Made by a program: the position numbers and the translations under genes
Shown here: positions 4,561 through 61,818 of the stretch, in pieces
Layout of the letters: each line of letters begins with the position of its first letter
Position numbering within the stretch: position 1 is the first letter of the stretch
The notes under the pieces: model-generated
Databases searched by the model: none
What the model saw: the letters and a program-made list of their open reading frames with translations, nothing else
Told to the model about the DNA's origin: nothing
Source of the DNA: an uncultured delta proteobacterium
GTDB taxonomy: Bacteria; Myxococcota_A; Polyangia; Fen-1088
DNA: 64,000 bases
Assembly (NCBI GenBank): GCA_963737265.1
Contig: CAVTRY010000014.1
Span: forward strand, 96,001-160,000
Direction of reading: 5' to 3'

Positions 4561-4706
4561 ACCTCCCTAGCCGTGTGACGGTGGCATTCGGAGTCTTGCC
4601 GCCGACGAATTCGACCTGATCGATGTCCCTTCGTCTGTCTTGGAACGTGGGGTATCATCGCCGCGTTAGCGATTTTCCGCACATTCGCAGGCTCCCACGC
4701 GCCAAT

Positions 4707-4967
4707 ATGTCCACTCGATTTTTCACCAACCTCGGCAGCAACACACTCCTTGCCAAGCTTGAAGGCGTCTTTCACCACAACCCGGACATCGAGTGGTTCG
4801 ACGCCCTGGTCGGCTACCTGCGAGCGTCCGGCTATTTTGCGTTGCGCCCGCACCTTGAAAAGGTGCCACACGTGCGCATTCTCGTCGGAATCGATGTCGA
4901 TGAAATCGTCGCGGACTACCACAAGCGGGGACTCCTTTTCCTCGCCGACCCGGCCAGGCCGCCTTGA
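4707..4967 (+). pseudogene. N-terminal stub of a PLD-domain/SNF2-type helicase
   Basis: MSTRFFTN...FDALVGYLRASGYF...VRILVGIDVD resembles the N-terminus of large PLD-helicases found with R-M systems; ends after ~86 aa. Confidence 0.6.
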
Positions 4968-5605
4968 ACGATGAAGAGCTTGCGCTCAAGGACAGCTCGC
5001 TCAGCGTCTATCTGACCGAAGCGGTGAAGCAGGGTCTGGTTCACGACGCCGGGCGAGGGTGGTACTCGCGCCTCGCCGATCGCGTGGCGCTGGATCCCAA
5101 GCCCGTTGCCAGGCTGGTTCGCGCGGTCGAAAAGGCGTTCCCATTGCTCGACTTCACCGTCTGGAGCACGGCGCAGGTGAACCCGTGGATGCACCACTTG
5201 CTCGCGCAGCCCGTGGCGTTTCTGCACGCCCCGGCGGACACGCTGGAATCCATCGGAGAAGCACTGGTCGAGTTGAAATGGAACGTGGGGATCAATCCAC
5301 CGCCCAGCACCGCCGCCAAGAGCGTCGAGCCGAGCGAGAAGACCGTCGTCCTGCGCCCCACGCTGTCGAAACAGCCCATCGCTGAGGGTCGTCAGGCGCC
5401 GATCGAGAAGATTCTGGTGGACCTGATCGTGGAGGCCCCGCTGCTTTCGTTGATGGACAGTTCCGAGGCGCAAGCCGTTGTCCGGAACGTGCTTGACGTG
5501 CATCTAGCTAATATTGCTGCCATCCAACGCTATGCCGACTCGCGTCGCGTTGCCTTCGAAGCGATTAACCAACGCCACTCAATCGCCTCTAGTGGCGTTA
5601 GTTAA
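4964..5605 (+). CDS. DUF6577-like putative type IV TA antitoxin, probably N-terminally truncated
   Basis: wHTH-like SLSVYLTEAVKQGLVHDAGRGWYS, VWST..NPWMHH and IEKILVDL motifs; directly upstream of an AbiEii gene. Confidence 0.7.
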   Translation: MNDEELALKDSSLSVYLTEAVKQGLVHDAGRGWYSRLADRVALDPKPVARLVRAVEKAFPLLDFTVWSTAQVNPWMHHLLAQPVAFLHAPADTLESIGEALVELKWNVGINPPPSTAAKSVEPSEKTVVLRPTLSKQPIAEGRQAPIEKILVDLIVEAPLLSLMDSSEAQAVVRNVLDVHLANIAAIQRYADSRRVAFEAINQRHSIASSGVS

Positions 5606-5610
5606 TCGCT

Positions 5611-6728
5611 GTGTTTCAAGCCCAAGCCTTCACCGTCGAGTGGATCCGCGCCCAAGTGCAGGACGCTGGGAAATTGCGACCCCGGGATCCTTGAAAAGTG
5701 CGTTCACGCCCTGACCTTGCTCGGTCATCTGGCCGAAAGCGGCCTGCCGTTTCTTTTCAAGGGCGGCACCAGCCTACTCCTGCACCTGCCCGAACCACGT
5801 CGCCTCTCGCGCGACATCGACATCGTGTGTGGCCAGCCAACGCACGAGGTCGACACCGTGGTGGTGCGGATCGGTGGGCGGGCTCCATTTCTGCGCTGGG
5901 CGGAAGACCCGCGCGGGGGCGCGCGGCTGCCACGGCGGCGGCACTTCAAATTCTTCTACCGATCCGCGCTGCCGGGGAATCCCGAGACCGAGGTCTTGCT
6001 CGATGTGGTCGAGGAATCGCGCGAAACCCATGAGGTCGTGAGCCTTCCCATCCGCACCAGCTTTCTGCGGCCAGAGCGAGAAGTGGCTCGTGCGCATCCC
6101 GACCATCGAAAGCCTGCTCGGCGACAAGTTGACCGCGTTCGCCCCATCCACGACCGGAATACCACTGCGCAACGCCGATGGGTCGGAGGCCGACGTGCAG
6201 CAGGTTGCCAAGCAGCTTTTCGACGTCGGTGCGCTGTTCGATGCAGCCAGCGACTTCGTCGTAGCGGACAAGGTTCACGCCGCTGTGTGCGCTCTCGACG
6301 CAGAGTACCGAGAATCGCGGCCGACACGCGAGCAAGCCCTCGACGACACATGGCGAGCCTGCCTTGCGATGACGGCGACCAAGCCAGCGATTTGCGCGGG
6401 GTATCCAGATGGGCCGCTGCTACACGCAGGGCTCGACCGCATGAGAGGGCACCTTATCGAACCGAAATATGTGGCGGGCCAGGCCGCTCGTCAGAAATTG
6501 GCCGCGAAAGCGGCGGTGCTGGTGGCCCACATGCGCTCAGGCGCCATGTTCGACTTTGCGGCCAATCGGTACACCGGCAGCTCTACCCAGTTGGATGCCG
6601 TGCGGGCAGCAACTCTCAACGGCACCGATCTCGCTTGGCTCGACAAGATGAAGACGGTTAACCCTGAAGCGTTTCATTACTGGCATCGGGCCGTGCTTGT
6701 ATTCAAGGCAACGAGTTTTGGCAAATAG
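5611..6728 (+). CDS. AbiEii/AbiGii-family nucleotidyltransferase toxin (two +1 frameshifts near 5652 and 6085, likely sequencing errors)
   Basis: Reconstructed MFQAQAFTVEWIRAKCRTLGNCDPGILEKCVHALTLL; FKGGTSL and RLSRDIDI in ORF 5717; ESLLGDKLTAFAP and KQLFDV in ORF 6090. Confidence 0.8.
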
Positions 6729-53136: not shown

Positions 53137-54792
<1,656 letters not shown>

Positions 54793-54797
54793 GTAGA

Positions 54798-54923
54798 CCC
54801 GCGCTCTGGCTTCGGCGGGCAAGGCCCGCCTCCGCCAAATGTCCGTGATGGGAACCCTGAAAGGGTTCCCAAACCCTCCCGCGCTCTGGCTTCGGCGGGC
54901 AAAGCCCGCCTCCGCCAAACGTC
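54798..54923. repeat. Left part (~1.5 units) of an 80-bp REP-like two-hairpin tandem array
   Basis: Nearly identical to the units at 58474-58717; hairpins TGGGAACCC-tgaaa-GGGTTCCCA and GGCGGGC-aaa-GCCCGCC. Confidence 0.9.
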
Positions 54924-55062
54924 GGGTTTGCCCGGACATTCGCGTCATCGACTGAATTACCGGGCAGCTAAAGGAATTGGCGGGCAACCGCGCCGCAACT
55001 AGCGAATGGGGCGGCGTCGCGTTACCATGGCGACGACTCTCAACCCCACCGTGGAGGCTCGC

Positions 55063-55254
55063 ATGAATTCCGACACGCAAATGATCGTCCTTGGCGTCGA
55101 AGCGGTCCTTGGCATCGTCATCCTGTTCGCTCAGGTCAAGCTGTTCTCCATCGCGTCCACATTGACCGATTCCAAGACGAAGCTGACCGCGATTAGCTCC
55201 ACCTTGGACGCGATCCTTCAGGAAATGCACAAGAACCGGGACAAGCAAGCGTAG
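55063..55254 (+). CDS. Small membrane protein (63 aa, TM + amphipathic helix), transposon passenger
   Basis: GGAGG RBS; MIVLGVEAVLGIVILFAQV hydrophobic stretch. Confidence 0.6.
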   Translation: MNSDTQMIVLGVEAVLGIVILFAQVKLFSIASTLTDSKTKLTAISSTLDAILQEMHKNRDKQA

Positions 55255-55263
55255 GATGAATCC

Positions 55264-55431
55264 ATGCGAAAGACTCCCTGGCATTCGACCAAGAAGGGCA
55301 CGAGGCACTACCACAACAACGGAAAGTGCGGTCCTGGGGGCGAGATACCAGACCGCAATCGAGCGACGGGACCTGGCACAGGGTTGACCCTTTGCGAAGA
55401 CTGCAAGAAGCTCAACAGAGATGGCAAGTAG
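55264..55431 (+). CDS. 55-aa putative zinc-binding protein, transposon passenger
   Basis: Hand translation MRKTPWHSTKKGTRHYHNNGKCGPGGEIPDRNRATGPGTGLTLCEDCKKLNRDGK*, with H-x4-C and CxxC; below the ORF-track cutoff. Confidence 0.6.
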   Translation: MRKTPWHSTKKGTRHYHNNGKCGPGGEIPDRNRATGPGTGLTLCEDCKKLNRDGK

Positions 55432-55435
55432 GAAG

Positions 55436-55828
55436 CTAGGCACGAAGCTTTCCTCCTCTCCACTTCGCTCGCTGGTCATGCTTCGGATCTTCGCGTAGAG
55501 CATCGGTCCTGACGAATTCGATTTCCCACTGCGGCCCGACAAGCTCTAGATCGAGGACATCCCAAACCCTGCAAAGACGGGCTACTTTCAGTCCATTCTG
55601 CTGTGCCACCGCGACCGCGCGCAGTCCTTCATAGTGTTCCCCGCTGAACCATACGGTGGGATCCCTTCGTGGGTGAGTATCGCCACCCTCGCAGGATTCG
55701 ATGGTTTCAATCCCGCCTTCTTGCAGAAGACGCACGGCCCTAGCAATGCCCTGATCGATAGGACGCGCGCCGCGACCTTCGGGAGGGGTTTTCCGCTCCC
55801 GCGTTATTGCCGAGCGCGATCCTCTCAT
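55436..55828 (-). CDS. Hypothetical passenger protein with D.GI..V..L...G.ET..SCEG motif
   Basis: ATG at 55828 overlaps the stop of the HTH gene (ATGA); IDQGIARAVRLLQEGGIETIESCEGG. Confidence 0.65.
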   Translation of the reverse strand: MRGSRSAITRERKTPPEGRGARPIDQGIARAVRLLQEGGIETIESCEGGDTHPRRDPTVWFSGEHYEGLRAVAVAQQNGLKVARLCRVWDVLDLELVGPQWEIEFVRTDALREDPKHDQRAKWRGGKLRA

Positions 55829-56109
55829 GGCCTGACACCTACTTCTGGCCCACGTCCACAATGTGGGCATGTTCCGGCCAGAGGGTACCTCCCAGACACC
55901 ACGTCATCGAATAGCACGCACGCCAGCCTGGATACCTGGAAGGCCAGATTGACCGACGCTGGGTTGACGCCCTTGTCGATGTTTTTCATGGTGCTCAACT
56001 CGAAGCCAAGCGCCTTGGCGAGCATCTTCCACGTGCCCACTCGAATGCGCAGGAAGCGCAGAGCGGCCATGACGTTCGCCCGCTGCTCCTTGCTCAGTCC
56101 GCGTCTCAC
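55825..56109 (-). CDS. XRE-like HTH protein with C-terminal CPHC
   Basis: WKMLAKALGFELSTMKNIDKG helix-turn-helix pattern; GTG overlaps the transposase stop (GTGA). Confidence 0.7.
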   Translation of the reverse strand: MRRGLSKEQRANVMAALRFLRIRVGTWKMLAKALGFELSTMKNIDKGVNPASVNLAFQVSRLACVLFDDVVSGRYPLAGTCPHCGRGPEVGVRP

Positions 56110-57341
56110 GCTGTCACCTTCCTAAGAAAGCTTGGCTCTATGCCGAGCTTGTGCATGGCCATGACCAAGCACGACAGATTGTGACAGAGCACCTTGCACA
56201 AGATCTCGTTAACCTGTGCGGTGAAAGTCTTGGAGCGCACGGACTGGCCAAACTTGCGCTTGACCGCTGAAAAGGTGCTTTCGATGGCGCTGCGCTTGGA
56301 GTAGGCCGCGAGAAAATCCTCGTGCTTAAACATGAAGACCGCGCGCATCTTGCGCCACGCTGGCGATCCATCGTCCTGGCTGTTGATCTTGAAAGGTATG
56401 AATGGCGAAGCGCCGGCGGCTTCGATGGCGGCTAGATTCTCGTGCCCGAGATACGCCTTGTCCGCCGAGACTTCTGCCATGCCTACGAAGCGTTGCTTCG
56501 TAGCTTCCACCAAGCCGGGGAGTTGGGGAGAGTCCGCGCCGCTGCTGTCCGTAACCCGGACGGCGGTGATGATGTTTGTCGATGTTCCGATCATCGCGTG
56601 CGCCTTCAGCCAGGTATGCTCCTTCATCTCGCGTCCGTACTTCTGATCATACCAGCGACGGCAAATGGCAGTGCCAAAACCAGTCGAGTCCACCGCAAAG
56701 GCAGTCTCGACGGCGGCCAGGGGCTCCGCGCTTTGTTCTATCAGCTTCGTCAGAAGCTCGGTCACCTCGACCTTGTCGAAGTAGTCGATGATCGTGTTGT
56801 AGCGTGGCACCTTGGTCATGTGGCCAGCTTCGCCAGACGCTTCCAGGTCTGTCGTCGCGCGACGGGCGGACATCGCCACGTAGACCTTCATTACCATCGC
56901 AAAGACGGCGTCAGAGAGAGGCACTGGCTTGCGACCACGGCCCGCATGCGCCGGAGTCTTGATGCCGTCGCAGAGCCCACGCAGAAGGTGCTCAACCGTC
57001 TCCTTCTCCTCGCACTGGGCGGTGTTGTAGGCGTTCCAGTCGCGATCTTGCGGCGCCCGGCTGTAGCTGATGGACTGGGTAACAACGTCTCCCTTTTCAG
57101 ACTTCGCAACCGTCTGTGCGAATTCCACGGCCCACTGGTGCTTGCAGCGTATGCGGCGAAGCTCGAAATCGGGGCATGAGCAGGTGCCTTCCGCCACGTT
57201 GACGAGGTAGCCGCCCGATGGCTGGGTTTGCGATGGCACAAGCCAAGTCACGCCCGCCACGCACTTGATCCGGTTGTCATGCGAAAGCATCCTGCCGCGC
57301 TCTTGCCGAAGATCCGTTGTGCTCGCCTGCGTTGTCGTCAT
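56106..57341 (-). CDS. DDE transposase (IS5/IS4 superfamily) with N-terminal SWIM zinc finger
   Basis: CSCPDFELRRIRCKH (SWIM), DWNAYN, AVDSTGF, WLKAH, ADKAY, and YSKRSAIESTFSAVK matching Y-x2-R-x3-E-x6-K. Confidence 0.92.
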   Translation of the reverse strand: MTTTQASTTDLRQERGRMLSHDNRIKCVAGVTWLVPSQTQPSGGYLVNVAEGTCSCPDFELRRIRCKHQWAVEFAQTVAKSEKGDVVTQSISYSRAPQDRDWNAYNTAQCEEKETVEHLLRGLCDGIKTPAHAGRGRKPVPLSDAVFAMVMKVYVAMSARRATTDLEASGEAGHMTKVPRYNTIIDYFDKVEVTELLTKLIEQSAEPLAAVETAFAVDSTGFGTAICRRWYDQKYGREMKEHTWLKAHAMIGTSTNIITAVRVTDSSGADSPQLPGLVEATKQRFVGMAEVSADKAYLGHENLAAIEAAGASPFIPFKINSQDDGSPAWRKMRAVFMFKHEDFLAAYSKRSAIESTFSAVKRKFGQSVRSKTFTAQVNEILCKVLCHNLSCLVMAMHKLGIEPSFLRKVTA

Positions 57342-57347
57342 GATTAT

Positions 57348-57415
57348 ATGTATACATTAGCGCGCGTGAAGATGCAAGGTAAATGTGTTGACAATAACAT
57401 GACGCCTGGTATCCT
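57348..57415. promoter_or_regulatory. Divergent sigma70 promoters for the transposase and RHH genes, with a palindromic site
   Basis: Minus strand TTGCAT-N17-TATACA, 7 nt before the transposase ATG. Plus strand TTGACA-N16-TATCCT, 6 nt before ATG 57422. Palindrome ATGTATACAT at 57348-57357. Confidence 0.6.
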
Positions 57416-57421
57416 CAAATC

Positions 57422-57604
57422 ATGAGCCCAGCACCACGCAAAAAGGCGTCAGAGCGACGCGAGACGCCACTCCAGATCCGTCTGACCGCAGAGGAAAAGA
57501 AGATGTTCACTGAGGCGGCCGACCGCGACCACCTATCAATATCGGCGTGGCTACGCCTGGCGGGCCTTCACGCCATCGAGAACCGACACAAGCTGAAGGG
57601 ATGA
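57422..57604 (+). CDS. Ribbon-helix-helix DNA-binding protein (DUF1778/MobC-like)
   Basis: LQIRLTAEEKKMFTEAADRDHLSISAWLR strand-helix-helix pattern. Confidence 0.75.
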   Translation: MSPAPRKKASERRETPLQIRLTAEEKKMFTEAADRDHLSISAWLRLAGLHAIENRHKLKG

Positions 57605-57606
57605 TC

Positions 57607-58332
57607 CTACTCGTCATCGCCCTGACTGGGTGTCAGGCTGATTCCAAAATCACGAACGTCCTTACGCATCTCGACGATGACCTCGCTAATGTCTTCAATG
57701 TTTGAGTAGCGAGGCTTAGGCGATCCAACGATCTTGCCGCGTTTGTTCACATCCAATCTGGGTTTGCCCAGAATCTTCACTAGTTCGTCGAGCACCTGAC
57801 TCCGGAAGGCAGCGTTGTTCTTCAGTTCCTCAGTGTTAGCCCCAACGATGCCGCGTAGAGAACTCAACGAAGCCGAGAAATCCTCACGAGCCCCGCTCAC
57901 CCGAGCGGATTGAGTTTGATCGTACTGCTCCATGGCTTTCAAAAGCGAGGCAGAAACAGCCGCGAGTTGATCCGCAACCGGCGTTTCAAAGCCTGACAGC
58001 TTCTTCTCAAGACCCGCCAACCTGTTTTCATACTGCAACCCACGCCGCGCGTTTGCTTGAGTTTGTAGCGCGAAGTGAAGAACCAACATTGCCCACAGCG
58101 CGAAAGCAAGATTCAACAGAATAGCTCCGAGTCTTGCCTCGACGGATAGAAGCTGAGGCAATCCAAGAAAGAAGATGCACCCCAGGACGGTCACAACCAG
58201 CACACCGGCAATGATCTCTGCCGTCCTCGGGTTAAGACGTGGCATGACCCGCTCCGCCAAGCGCAAAAGACCAGCGATTGCTACAAACTCGATGAGCGCC
58301 CCTATGGCGGCTCCCAGAATGATGTCTCGCAT
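57607..58332 (-). CDS. Hypothetical membrane protein (3 TM + helical tail), transposon passenger
   Basis: Three hydrophobic segments then heptad-like region; more AT-rich than the host genes. Confidence 0.65.
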   Translation of the reverse strand: MRDIILGAAIGALIEFVAIAGLLRLAERVMPRLNPRTAEIIAGVLVVTVLGCIFFLGLPQLLSVEARLGAILLNLAFALWAMLVLHFALQTQANARRGLQYENRLAGLEKKLSGFETPVADQLAAVSASLLKAMEQYDQTQSARVSGAREDFSASLSSLRGIVGANTEELKNNAAFRSQVLDELVKILGKPRLDVNKRGKIVGSPKPRYSNIEDISEVIVEMRKDVRDFGISLTPSQGDDE

Positions 58333-58473
58333 GGCGCGCGATGCTACCACCGCCGCCCCCGCGCCGTAAGCACGCCGCAGCGCCCGCGTGGCCCATCATG
58401 TCACCGGCCCCTTTCGGGAATTGCCGGGCAGCCGGGGGAATTCTCGGGCAGGTGAGAATTGGCGGGCAAGCCC

Positions 58474-58717
58474 CCAAACGTCCGTGATGGGAACCCTGAA
58501 AGGGTTCCCAAACCCTCCCGCGCTCTGGCTTCGGCGGGCAAAGCCCGCCTCCGCCAAACGTCCGTGATGGGAACCCTGAAAGGGTTCCCAAACCCTCCCG
58601 CGCTCTGGCTTCGGCGGGCAAAGCCCGCCTCCGCCAAACGTCCGTGATGGGAACCCTGAAAGGGTTCCCAAACCCTCCCGCGCTCTGGCTTCGGCGGGCA
58701 AAGCCCGCCTCCGCCAA
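58474..58717. repeat. Right part (3 identical units) of the 80-bp REP-like tandem array
   Basis: ccaaacgtccgtgatgggaaccctgaaagggttcccaaaccctcccgcgctctggcttcggcgggcaaagcccgcctccg three times, with no spacers. Confidence 0.95.
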
Positions 58718-58812
58718 CGCGGTCGCCCGAAAAGGTACTGTCTAGAGCGCCCGGCAGTTTTCCCGTCGGGCGTTTTTCTAGCGCCCTCCGCGGTGGCGGT
58801 TACAATGGAAGC

Positions 58813-59208
58813 GTGATCGCCGAAGTCGTGGACAATCGCAGAAGAGATCCTCGCATCGAGGTCTTCGCCCAGGCCGAGGTAAAGGCCAAGGATGTCCAGA
58901 TCATGGAGGTCCGCAATGTGTCCACGGGCGGGATCTATCTCGTCGGCACGTCCGCCCAATATCCCGACCTGGCTCCTGGCAAGGATCTCGGCCTCGTGAT
59001 CTTCGGCCTGGAAGATGGCTTGGGCGACGACCCGACCTTCAATATTGTCTGCCGTGCGCGCATCATTCGCATCGACGAGGGCTTTCCGGGCAAGCGTCCG
59101 CCCGGTTTCGGCGCCACCATCGATCCCATCGACGAAGACAACCGCGACCGCCTGACCAACCTGCTTTTGCGGGCCGACCATTTCCGGGCGGGCGATCCGC
59201 GCCGGTAG
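58813..59208 (+). CDS. PilZ domain protein
   Basis: RRRDPR (RxxxR) and NVSTGG (D/NxSxxG) c-di-GMP motifs. Confidence 0.85.
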   Translation: MIAEVVDNRRRDPRIEVFAQAEVKAKDVQIMEVRNVSTGGIYLVGTSAQYPDLAPGKDLGLVIFGLEDGLGDDPTFNIVCRARIIRIDEGFPGKRPPGFGATIDPIDEDNRDRLTNLLLRADHFRAGDPRR

Positions 59209-59982: not shown

Positions 59983-61818
59983 CTAGATCGGATAGTCAGG
60001 CGGTCCCACGGAGCCGCCCATGGTGTGGCCTTCGCGCCACAGGGCTTCTTCCATGGCTGCAAGCAACGGCCCAATGGTTTGTCGGTCGAGCGCGCTCACC
60101 GCCAAAACGCGGCCGCTGTCTTCGAGGATGGCTCTCTCCTCGGTCTGTAGGCGGTCGGCCTTGTTGTAGACCAGCAGGCGCGGCGTCTCGGCCAGATTCA
60201 AATCGCCGAGGATGCGCTCTACCGCGGTGATGTGGGCATCGCGATCCGGATCCGATGCATCGACCAGGTGGAGCAAGAGATCGGCGTTGTCCAGCTCCTC
60301 CAGCGTGGCGCGGAACGCTTGCGCGAGATCCTTGGGCAGATCGCGTATAAATCCCACGGTGTCGGCGAGAATCAACTCTCGCTCGCGCGGGAAGCGCAGC
60401 CGGCGGGTGGTCGGATCGAGGGTGGCGAAGAGCTTGTCTTCCACCAAGACGTCGCTGCCGGTGAGACTGTTCAGCAGGGTGGACTTGCCAGCGTTGGTGT
60501 AGCCCACGATGGCGACGACAGGCAGTCCGTGGCCTTCCCGCGCAGAGCGCCGGTTCGCGCGCTGGCGGCGGGTTTGCTCGATGTCTTTTTCCAAGCGATG
60601 CAACCGCTCGCGCGCACGGCGGCGGCCGATTTCTAGCTTGGTCTCGCCCGGGCCGCGCCCGCCAATGCCTCCCACCAGGCGACTCATCATGGTGTTTTCT
60701 TCCTGCAGTCGCGGCAGGCGATAGCGCAATTGCGCCAGCTCGACTTGCAGCTTGGCGTCCCGGCTGCGCGCGCGCTGGGCGAAGATGTCGAGAATCAGAA
60801 TGGTTCGATCGATCACCTTGAGATCGGTAAACGACGCGATGGCATGGGCCTGGCCCGGCGACAGATCAGGATCGAAAATCAGCACGCTGGCATCGAACTG
60901 CATGGCGCGCACAAGCACGTCCTCGAGCTTGCCGCGACCGATGAGGTAGCGCGGATCGGGTTCGGGCCGTCGCTGCACCGCCACGTCCACCACCAGAATG
61001 CCGGCGGTTCGGCACAGCTCGCGCAGCTCGTGTACGCGGCTATTGTCTTGGGAACCCTGGGCGGGTTCCCAAACCTTCCCGCGAGGCTCCGCTGCCGGCA
61101 AAGCCGGCAGGCTCCGCACGCGACTATTGTCTTGGGAACCCTGGGCGGGTTCCCAAACCTTCCCGCGAGGCTCCGCTGCCGGCAAAGCCGGCAGGCTCCG
61201 CACGCGACTATCGCCGCGCGATTTGCCGATCTCCGCCACGACCAGCAGGGCGCGCTCGGCCGAGCGGGTCGCGCGCGTGGAGGGCAGCACGCGCTCGAAT
61301 TCTTCTTCCAGCGCGGCGATGATCTCGGCGGGATCGACGGGCGCGCGGTGGAACGGCGCGGGTGGCAGTGAGACCCAGGGCGATTTGCCTTCGCGGGGTG
61401 GGACCAGGTGGGCAAGGTGAAGATCGGCGGGCCGGCCTTCGTGATTGACGCCCACGGCGGCGACGAGATCCAGGCGCAAGAGAGCGAGATCGACGAGATC
61501 GTCGCGCGACAGGGTTTCGTTGCGCAAGTGGGTGTGCACCAGGCGTAGCCCGCGAAAGCGGCCGTGACCAGCGCGGAGGCGTCCGACCTCGGGCAGAACG
61601 ATGCGCGAGGCGTCGCCCACGAAGACATGCTCGATATCGCCCCGGCGTGAGATGAGCACGCCGACTTGGCGCCCGATGCTTCGCGATACCTCGCACAAGT
61701 AGGCGCCAAGCTCGGCCGAGACGACATCGTTGGGCGCGACCCGTCGGCGGTACACGCGTTCGAGGGCCGACAGCTCCGAGGGCTTGAGGCCCGCGCGATT
61801 TCCCGTCACCTCGTGCAT
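59983..61818 (-). CDS. hflX: GTPase HflX (long N-terminal form) with a 56-aa in-frame repeat insertion
   Basis: [51 protein letters not shown] and NKAD motifs. Confidence 0.95.
61034..61211. repeat. 84-bp tandem palindromic repeat (2 units) inside hflX
   Basis: Two identical 74-bp cores separated and flanked by acgcg(g/a)ctat; encodes [28 protein letters not shown] twice. Confidence 0.92.

Follow-up and report, generated by a model that had tools for sequence, protein, structure and literature searches.

Here, we present an analysis of a 3,550-bp element at positions 54924-58473 of a 64,000-nucleotide stretch of DNA from an uncultured delta proteobacterium (contig CAVTRY010000014.1, positions 96,001 to 160,000; hereafter, this whole stretch is called the window and its contig C14, one of the 25 contigs of a 6.55-Mb genome). 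We found that the element is a discrete insertion, flanked by a target duplication of 9 bp, and that it contains seven open reading frames (ORFs), one of which encodes a 411-aa transposase with a SWIM zinc finger in its N-terminal part. Judged from its sequence, the element is very probably an intact, and probably still mobile, unit transposon, i.e., a transporter insertion sequence (IS); the large family to which it belongs is related to the IS903 group within the IS5 family. The members of this family have in common GGCTTTG termini, 9-bp duplications, and, at each end, three sites of ~13 bp whose asymmetric arrangement is fixed; their interior is variable. A preliminary description, based only on the letters of the window, had proposed a complete passenger-carrying transposon; what we found is a bounded insertion that encloses non-transposition genes within a single target duplication.

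The element interrupts an array of 80-bp units that resemble repetitive extragenic palindromes (REPs). To the right of the element, Tandem Repeats Finder (TRF) recognized 3.0 copies of the unit with 100% matches at 58474-58717, and the left flank at 54798-54923 is 98% identical to 58517-58642. The 9-mer CCAAACGTC, exact copies of which bracket the body as had been described, corresponds to the first nine bases of the 80-bp unit; the array ends directly after the left copy at 54915-54923, a full unit begins with the right copy at 58474-58482, and removal in silico of the body together with one 9-mer generates an uninterrupted, in-phase 80-bp array. The locus lies between groEL and a PilZ gene, and a search for an empty site downstream of groEL had been suggested in the preliminary description. 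We found this spacer empty in 7/7 genomes of the same genus that we examined: in each of them, the PilZ gene adjoins the 3' end of groEL, the stretches across the junction are 141-281 nt long, none of the seven ORFs is present at the locus, and four of the seven genomes have REP-like units at the junction. The GC content of the body is 58% compared with 63% for the contigs. Moreover, 57596-58473 is present at 100% identity in contigs of soil runs that also hold window sequence, with a ~20-fold higher contig depth than the rest, and in three soil runs (X1, X2, and X3), contigs switch to unrelated sequence exactly after 58473. The identical end beside a different flank indicates that the same end occupies a second site in that community.

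Alternatively, the transposase gene could belong to an ordinary short IS that ends beside it, in which case the outer inverted repeats and target duplication would be by-products of the 80-bp repeats and the other ORFs would be host genes. The 9-mer does belong to a tandem repeat, and identical flanking copies could arise without transposition; also, the terminal inverted repeat (TIR) by itself is not above chance, and the boundary rests on four other lines of evidence. However, the 9-mer occurs once per unit in an unbroken array but twice around the insert, and the phase of the array is restored upon removal of the insert. Scans of the window revealed no end-like site cluster beside the transposase gene, and this outer architecture recurs in 26 other elements, the flanks of which are unrelated. 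Finally, the relatives without the seven ORFs and the contigs that break exactly at 58473 are difficult to reconcile with a short IS. Altogether, we consider this alternative extremely improbable.

The two ends of the element are not equivalent. The end that we refer to as the A end has three directly repeated ~13-bp sites at offsets of ~5, 23, and 43 counted inward, while at the B end, the terminal site (offset ~5) is followed by two sites that point the other way, at offsets 32 and 52; all six sites are recognizable in the window element at the offsets typical of the family. Accordingly, the 18-bp imperfect TIRs of the preliminary description stand as a terminal match of 14/18 positions; however, the ends are not simple TIRs but two different arrays of three phased sites each. 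The same plan is present in a degraded second copy in this genome and in the elements of relatives. Among 17 elements, at least one further site matching the terminus of the same end at 10 or more of 13 positions is present at 28/34 ends compared with 151/5,100 internal pseudo-ends, and at least two further sites are present at 15/34 ends compared with 11/5,100 internal pseudo-ends. The offsets 5/23/43 (direct) and 5/32/52 (inverted) recur while the sequence of the sites varies (TTGCCC..AATT, TTGCACATAAAGT, TTGTGTAAAAAGT, and TTGCCTCAGAAGT) and in elements that span DNA of 27-68% GC, as expected of a protein-binding array. When the genome was scanned for this geometry alone, with no constraint on sequence, GC-rich repeats dominated the output; with a GGCTTTG-like start included, the scan returned only the known ends and the solo ends described below. 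We also noticed a 13-mer, GGGTTTGCCCAGA, at 57760-57772 inside the mem247 ORF that matches the left terminus at 12/13 positions in the same orientation and is not followed by further sites; it could be a chance match, a relic end, or a regulatory site.

The family is large. The transposase has more than 4,090 matches among 5.8 billion proteins, of which the best 120 are 348-458 aa long, and 804 clusters at 50% identity match it with E values of at most 1e-30; one homologous transposase in the protein search is labeled archaeal. It is found in 6/12 other genomes of the genus and in 7/400 sampled genomes of the phylum, with one match each. We collected loci from relatives, from metagenomes (80 loci), and from viral contigs (25 loci) and searched them blindly for ends, with a GG start, at least 12/16 matching end positions, and a flanking 9-bp duplication with at most one mismatch; the 9-bp duplication of the relatives is thus a search criterion. 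Among 76 loci from relatives and metagenomes, 20 gave a match, of which 18 were GGCTTTG-like (17 distinct, L123 and L125 being the same), compared with 1/76 in the reversed-sequence control. Among the 25 loci from viral contigs, 10 gave a match, all of them GGCTTTG-like, compared with 0/25 in the control. L089, L101, and two extra pairs in L142 have non-GGCTTTG termini that match at 12/16 positions; we judged these to be chance matches and left them out of the counts. Altogether, this resulted in 27 distinct complete elements of 2,561-8,531 bp with outer ends far from the transposase gene, and the duplication is exact in 25/27. The recurrence of ends around varying content, which had been noted as something to check, was therefore borne out. 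Among the 26 relatives, the termini of 25 begin with GGCTT, while those of L088 are GGCCTTG/GGCGTTG; the window element has GGG(T/C)TTGCCC. Imperfect terminal matches are also present in other members with exact duplications. In 9/17 elements of the first set, the right duplication is followed by a G, which is also the base with which the element begins; in these nine, the cut could be placed one base over, or the target may favor G.

In a looser search based on end architecture, we identified 22 loci with both ends, mostly 3.3-8.5 kb in size. The distance from the transposase gene to the end is 314-5,273 bp on one side and 60-7,001 bp on the other, leaving room for cargo on both sides, in agreement with the two cargo slots that had been proposed; a cargo-free form of ~1.5 kb was not seen among these loci.

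Based on Pfam, the 411-aa ORF contains SWIM at aa 45-74 (E = 2.3e-8) and DDE_Tnp_1 at aa 212-389 (E = 1.3e-21), which are the two domains expected if, as proposed, an extra N-terminal SWIM finger had been added to an IS4/IS5-type enzyme. The proposed motifs are all present: an alignment of 25 sequences shows D218-S-T-G, W244-x-K-x-H248, D294-x-A-Y297, and Y347-x2-R350-x3-E354-x6-K361 without variation, except that K246 is conserved in at least 90%, and CxC...CxH of the SWIM finger (C54/C56/C66/H68) is likewise invariant among the 25 homologues. The best NCBIfam model is IS5_2 (NF033579). The same model recognizes, with 386.8 bits, the transposase of a plain IS, which is the best plasmid match (L134, on plasmid NZ_AP018454.1); this IS is 1,047 bp long, has GGCTTTGTTG termini (GGCTTTGTTGCAC), which begin with GGCTTTG, and is flanked by a 9-bp duplication. 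These similarities uphold the suggested link to IS903-type IS. Using BLASTP, aa 101-388 of the window protein align to aa 15-298 of the L134 enzyme with 28% identity (E = 1e-17), beginning at a common (D/N)W..YN motif. The window protein is therefore a complete transposase of the IS903 type to which ~100 N-terminal residues, the SWIM finger among them, have been added. A PDB profile search with the transposase alignment gave no match at E values of at most 0.01, and neither rve nor AAA+ domains were found in any of the seven ORFs in Pfam and NCBIfam scans.

With a family of this size and spread, some member has probably been met by curators, and it is possible, if somewhat doubtful, that the element belongs to a group already listed in ISfinder/TnCentral, for instance as an IS5-family IS with passenger genes. 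SWIM and DDE_Tnp_1 Pfam calls are already precomputed for many of the transposase matches, and the concept of a transporter IS exists, as set out in PMC9330008. By contrast, the sources of these matches, where they name them at all, call them only "transposase"; the window transposase scores under the NCBI cut-off for the IS5 family; and among 749 matching records of PLSDB plasmids, none covers at least 80% of the query and none spans the SWIM part. Moreover, among the listings and abstracts returned by full-text literature searches, no paper links SWIM with IS5/IS4-type bacterial transposases, and SWIM and DDE_Tnp_1 occur together only in a ciliate-genome paper.

Two small genes accompany the transposase gene, and both had been described as regulators of the element itself. 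The first, hth94, has a GTG start codon that overlaps the transposase stop codon (GTGA, 56106-56109) and a stop codon that overlaps the ATG of o144 (ATGA, 55825-55828). A profile of 10 Hth94 members matches helix-turn-helix (HTH) regulators of the XRE/PbsX type weakly (E = 0.008), and a C-terminal CPHCG motif is invariant among the homologues. Among 65 loci with enough sequence, hth94 lies directly downstream of the transposase gene in 31 and is absent in 34; based on a quick transposase tree, the loci with hth94 lie mostly within one clade. Elements that end 60-84 bp after the transposase gene lack hth94 and yet retain the sites; for this reason, we rejected Hth94 as the reader of the sites. 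The second gene is divergent and upstream, and belongs to one of two unrelated families, encoding either a ribbon-helix-helix (RHH) protein similar to NikA or a zinc-ribbon protein with CxxC...CxxC. Among 71 loci with enough sequence, 27 have RHH, 24 zinc-ribbon, and 20 have neither detectable. In the same tree, the type of gene switches at least 19 times, and near-identical transposases with tip branches of 0.01-0.06 have different upstream genes (L039 versus L040; L041 versus L059). The position next to the transposase promoter is thus a hot spot of gene replacement. Because two unrelated families swap between near-identical transposases, we rejected the RHH protein as a fixed part of the transposition machinery and instead read the small gene as an exchangeable repressor. 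The idea of regulators is therefore supported insofar as the HTH and RHH genes recur; however, neither is constant. The 80-bp spacer between the transposase gene and rhh60 contains putative back-to-back promoters, TTCACG-16-TATAAT toward the transposase gene and TTGACA-16-TATCCT toward rhh60 (three promoter-like sites in the spacer compared with 1.0 +/- 1.0 in shuffles), and a 10-bp palindrome, ATGTATACAT, at 57349-57358 adjoins the -10 box of the transposase promoter.

The cargo of the window element consists of four small, rare proteins. None of o82, o55, o144, and mem247 has a Pfam, NCBIfam, PADLOC, or PHROG family, and PADLOC and PHROGs assign no family to any of the six accessory and cargo ORFs. 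The mem247 protein appears to consist of a hydrophobic N-terminus and a long polar tail and has two homologues of 191 aa in the whole database; o144 has two homologue clusters there. All six ORFs beside the transposase gene that had been described exist, and conservation backs hth94, rhh60, o55, and o144, while mem247 has its two homologues and o82 is backed by a GC content at third codon positions (GC3) of 0.81 alone. The o55/o144 pair is inverted in a relative element of similar size (L042), and the same module occurs in other soil contigs with breakpoints at 55331 and 56016 and with 17-25 differing letters in 343-681 nt; the inversion and the diverged module elsewhere support that the elements are mosaics. 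Also, the sharp breakpoints of the modules 55331-56016 and 57596-58473 in soil contigs suggest that elements of this family recombine in blocks. Separately, one soil contig skips 55101-55416 (joint 55100->55417), a weak observation with 28 nt on the shorter side and a depth of 3.4.

Methylase or restriction genes are present in 8/27 complete elements. The restriction-type cargo comprises XamI with a methylase, BstXI with a methylase, a C5 methylase with an HNH nuclease, and Type IIG/I-like fusions; other cargo in relatives includes a HigB-like toxin with an HTH partner, a protein kinase, HTH-M78 proteins, and a nested IS3-type IS, while most cargo ORFs of relatives have no Pfam family. The nested IS lies at 4679-5901 of the 7.4-kb relative L041 (genome G010), has HTH_Tnp_1 and rve ORFs, and accounts for part of the size of this element.

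The genome contains further copies and solo ends. An intact paralogue on contig C11 (1185890-1187800 onward; L002/L005) has a transposase with 59% identity to that of the window element; its order is a B-type end at C11:1185890, hth94, the transposase gene, RHH, and a gene that by eye resembles an N6-methylase gene, the start of which overlaps the RHH stop codon. Outside this B end are ORFs resembling, by eye, a toxin-antitoxin pair of the AbrB/Doc type. The degraded copy on contig C13 (250675-252937; L003/L006) is 2,263 bp long and has a transposase truncated at approximately residue 277 with an internal TGA; both of its tripartite ends are intact, and it has no target duplication. Solo ends with site arrays are present at C14:446525, outside the window, and at C1:24245. 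We looked for partner ends for C11:1185890, C14:446525, and C1:24245 and found none within reach. The C14:446525 end has a 17-nt terminus in common with the C11 element, suggesting a rearrangement between copies or an assembly break.

The target of the window element is a structured repeat. The 80-bp unit folds into two hairpins (free energy, -20.5 kcal/mol; z, -3.84), and only ~19-27 first hairpins of this kind exist in the genome; an Rfam scan of 54600-58900 gave no match at E values of at most 0.1. Of 11 elements of this genus, nine lie inside REP-like units. Three elements are inserted at CCCGCGCTC and the window copy at CCAAACGTC, and these two sites flank the second hairpin, GGCGGGCAAAGCCCGCC, at a distance of ~22-25 bp from its center. 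The complement of the second hairpin, GGCTTTGCCCGCC, is identical to the first 13 nt of the L040 and L100 termini. The 13-nt copy of a terminus in the hairpin, together with insertions at ~22-25 bp on either side of its center, suggests that the transposase is recruited by end mimicry. Structured or repetitive flanks were also noticed in metagenome copies: L116 lies beside an apparent end of another family member, L088 in a perfect hairpin, and L123 in a short tandem repeat.

Several observations weigh against the conclusion that 54924-58473 is an intact, mobile member of a family with tripartite ends and REP-directed insertion. The terminal 18-mers, GGGTTTGCCCGGACATTC and GGGCTTGCCCGCCAATTC, are identical at 14/18 positions by our own count, and the TIR is outside the 12 best pairs in an unbiased inverted-repeat scan of 5 kb on either side of the transposase gene. 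The empty sites belong to other species with flanking-gene identities of 67-77% and not to an allele of the same strain. The soil contigs are assembled and may include the source sample, and we therefore take the second flank as supporting evidence only; among the soil-run contigs aligned to the region, none spans an empty site. Within the genome, the exact element is single-copy. The transposase scores 133.6 bits with IS5_2, just below the curated cut-off of 140 for the IS5 family. The full 3+3 pattern of sites is above threshold in only 6/17 elements (seven if scored against either terminus), the rest being partial, and it is only partly visible in the 10 viral-contig elements; also, the transposase gene is flipped relative to the end types in L116, L126, and L129. 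Which of the proteins binds the sites is something that we infer. Finally, no common target sequence was found among 12 metagenome elements; the REP targeting rests on related genomes of one genus, and with kin genomes and few events, we treat end mimicry as a hypothesis.

Some of these observations could also be accounted for by an element that was once mobile and has since become fixed and inactive, i.e., an old insertion with decayed ends and with genes retained for another use. The single copy, the imperfect terminal match, and the fate of the two other copies, of which that on C13 is truncated with an internal TGA and without duplication and that on C11 lacks a detected partner end, agree with such a history. 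In contrast, the duplication is exact, the transposase is full-length with all catalytic residues and zinc ligands, all six sites are recognizable at the family offsets, and the 100% identical end lies beside another flank in the same community; as for the imperfect terminal match, members with exact duplications have it as well. We therefore think that inactivity is improbable and favor the interpretation that the element is intact and probably mobile.

Based on these observations, we propose how such an element may function. The N-terminal part of the transposase with the SWIM finger would read the phased sites: no protein other than the transposase is found in every element, and at this position, enzymes of the ordinary IS903 type have just a short N-terminal stretch, which makes this part the likeliest reader. 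Several protomers would then build an asymmetric transpososome that cuts at the GG termini and joins the target DNA with a 9-bp stagger. The back-to-back promoters are most likely repressed by the product of the small divergent gene (an RHH protein in the window element, a zinc-ribbon protein in others), while hth94 and o144, which are translationally coupled to the transposase gene, may influence activity or the choice of target. In this genus, the second hairpin of the REP unit, with its copy GGCTTTGCCCGCC of the terminus, may recruit the transposase by end mimicry.

The features of the element and its flanks are listed in Table 1. Upstream, groES and groEL end at 54792, and downstream, from 58813, there is the PilZ gene followed by a frataxin-like gene and a gene for an HflX-type GTPase. 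The latter ORF (59983-61818, minus strand; Pfam GTP-bdg_N/M and MMR_HSR1) contains two in-frame 84-bp REP-like copies at 61034-61211, just before the N-terminal domain. The 84-bp unit shares the hairpin type GGGAACCC...GGGTTCCC with the target array, and a REP-like element appears to be tolerated within the coding region of this GTPase.

Table 1. Features of the window element and its immediate flanks (positions in the window)
Feature	Position	Strand	Evidence or remark
Left flank, ~1.6 units of the 80-bp REP-like repeat (two hairpins per unit); target array outside the element	54798..54923	.	98% identity to right array
Left target-site duplication CCAAACGTC	54915..54923	.	Exact 9 bp
Terminal site of the B end, GGGTTTGCCCGGACATTC, inward	54924..54941	+	
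B-end subterminal sites GAATTACCGGGCAG (54954-54967) and GAATTGGCGGGCAA (54974-54987)	54954..54987	-	Inverted versus terminal site; offsets 32 and 52
ORF o82, 82 aa, one hydrophobic helix; cargo candidate	55006..55254	+	Weak support: GC3 0.81 alone; no family match
ORF o55, 55 aa, Cys-rich; two-gene module with o144	55264..55431	+	58% identical copy in L042
ORF o144, 130 aa from Met at 55828	55436..55828	-	Rare protein; 58% identical copy in L042; 2 homologue clusters
hth94, 94 aa, weak XRE/Cro-type HTH, C-terminal CPHCG	55825..56109	-	31/65 loci
Transposase, 411 aa: SWIM module (aa 1-100) and IS903-like DDE_Tnp_1 enzyme (aa 101-411)	56106..57341	-	Pfam, NCBIfam, alignment
Putative divergent sigma-70-like promoters and 10-bp palindrome	57343..57415	.	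Consensus matches only
rhh60, 60-aa RHH protein (NikA-like)	57422..57604	+	PF21983, E 1.1e-7, above cut-off
Cargo ORF mem247, 247 aa (database gene call starts later: 212 aa)	57607..58350	-	2 homologues
A end, three direct sites: 58418-58431, 58438-58451, and terminal 58456-58473	58418..58473	-	Offsets 43, 23, and 5
Right target-site duplication CCAAACGTC	58474..58482	.	Exact 9 bp
Right flank, three exact 80-bp REP-like units; target array	58474..58717	.	TRF

The textbook IS5-family element is a minimal IS with a single gene and simple inverted repeats. In the lineage described here, which comprises hundreds of clusters at 50% identity, the IS5 chassis has become a cargo carrier with complex asymmetric ends, a type of end formerly associated with integrase-type transposons. 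We raise, as a tentative suggestion, that these elements make up an undescribed class of prokaryotic transposon, in which an IS5/IS903-type enzyme with a SWIM finger would read three phased sites per end, build a Tn7/Mu-like asymmetric transpososome without rve or ATPase, be steered to REP hairpins that mimic its termini, and serve as a dedicated low-copy shuttle of restriction-modification and defense-type cargo across bacteria. If this were true, the four orphan proteins of the window element would be candidates for new defense or counter-defense functions. The features described here (GGCTTTG termini, a 9-bp duplication, and sites at 5/23/43 versus 5/32/52) could serve as annotation rules for thousands of "transposase" genes and their 2-8 kb of cargo, and the family is a candidate vehicle for the spread of restriction-modification and other small defense genes. 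Moreover, REP/end-mimic targeting would be a natural case that could explain safe-site insertion, and a compact single-enzyme system is a possible genetic tool for GC-rich soil bacteria. The basic principles of transposition are unchanged by these findings.

Several known systems have one or more of these properties. REP-targeting IS include IS1397, ISKpn1, and ISPpu9/10. The elements described here are similar to them in inserting into repetitive extragenic palindromes; they differ in enzyme family and in that the REP hairpin holds a 13-nt copy of the transposon's own terminus. SWIM is carried by MULE/MuDR transposases and by FAR1/FHY3, and in MULE it lies C-terminal to an IS256-like core. 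As in MULE, the window protein has a CxCxnCxH SWIM finger joined to a DDE transposase; however, its SWIM (aa 45-74) lies N-terminal to an IS903-like core, which is DDE_Tnp_1/IS5_2 and not MULE, so that this fusion is independent of that in MULE. PIF/Harbinger transposons of eukaryotes have an IS5-related DDE transposase, subterminal sites, and a 3-bp duplication, and Harbinger adds a second small DNA-binding protein. The subterminal sites and the HTH gene translationally coupled to the transposase gene are reminiscent of this arrangement, while the 9-bp duplication and the absence of hth94 from 34/65 loci are not; the latter also means that hth94 cannot be essential and argues against an obligatory role in the family.

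The ends of Tn7, phage Mu, Tn552, and IS21-type elements contain several transposase sites that differ in number and orientation, making the ends functionally distinct; the transposases of these systems are of the rve type and generate 5-bp duplications. The window element resembles Tn7 and Mu only in its multi-site, asymmetric end architecture. Unlike them, it has an IS4/IS5-type enzyme and a 9-bp duplication, and the Pfam scan of its ORFs revealed no ATPase or target-selector genes of the Tn7/Mu kind. In a transporter IS, as described in PMC9330008, passenger genes lie within one pair of ends and move with the transposase gene. The window element similarly encloses non-transposition genes in one pair of ends and one target duplication, while the cargo of the SWIM elements is often restriction-modification rather than resistance genes. 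We know of no transporter IS group defined by a SWIM-bearing IS903-type enzyme.

The closest comparison is the IS903 group of the IS5 family. IS903 has 18-bp inverted repeats and 9-bp target repeats. With L134 as the comparator, the similarities comprise the DDE_Tnp_1 core with DDE and Y-R-E-K, NF033579 as the best model, the 9-bp duplication, and GGC termini. The differences are the added 100-aa N-terminal SWIM module of the window transposase; three sites per end and non-equivalent ends compared with one inverted repeat per end; a size of 2.6-8.5 kb with accessory and cargo genes (3,550 bp and seven ORFs in the window) compared with ~1 kb and one ORF; and the low copy number of the SWIM elements. 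The window element thus deviates from the IS903 group in size, in its multiple ORFs, in its complex ends, and in the curated score; by core, termini, and duplication length, we conclude that it is an offshoot of this group.

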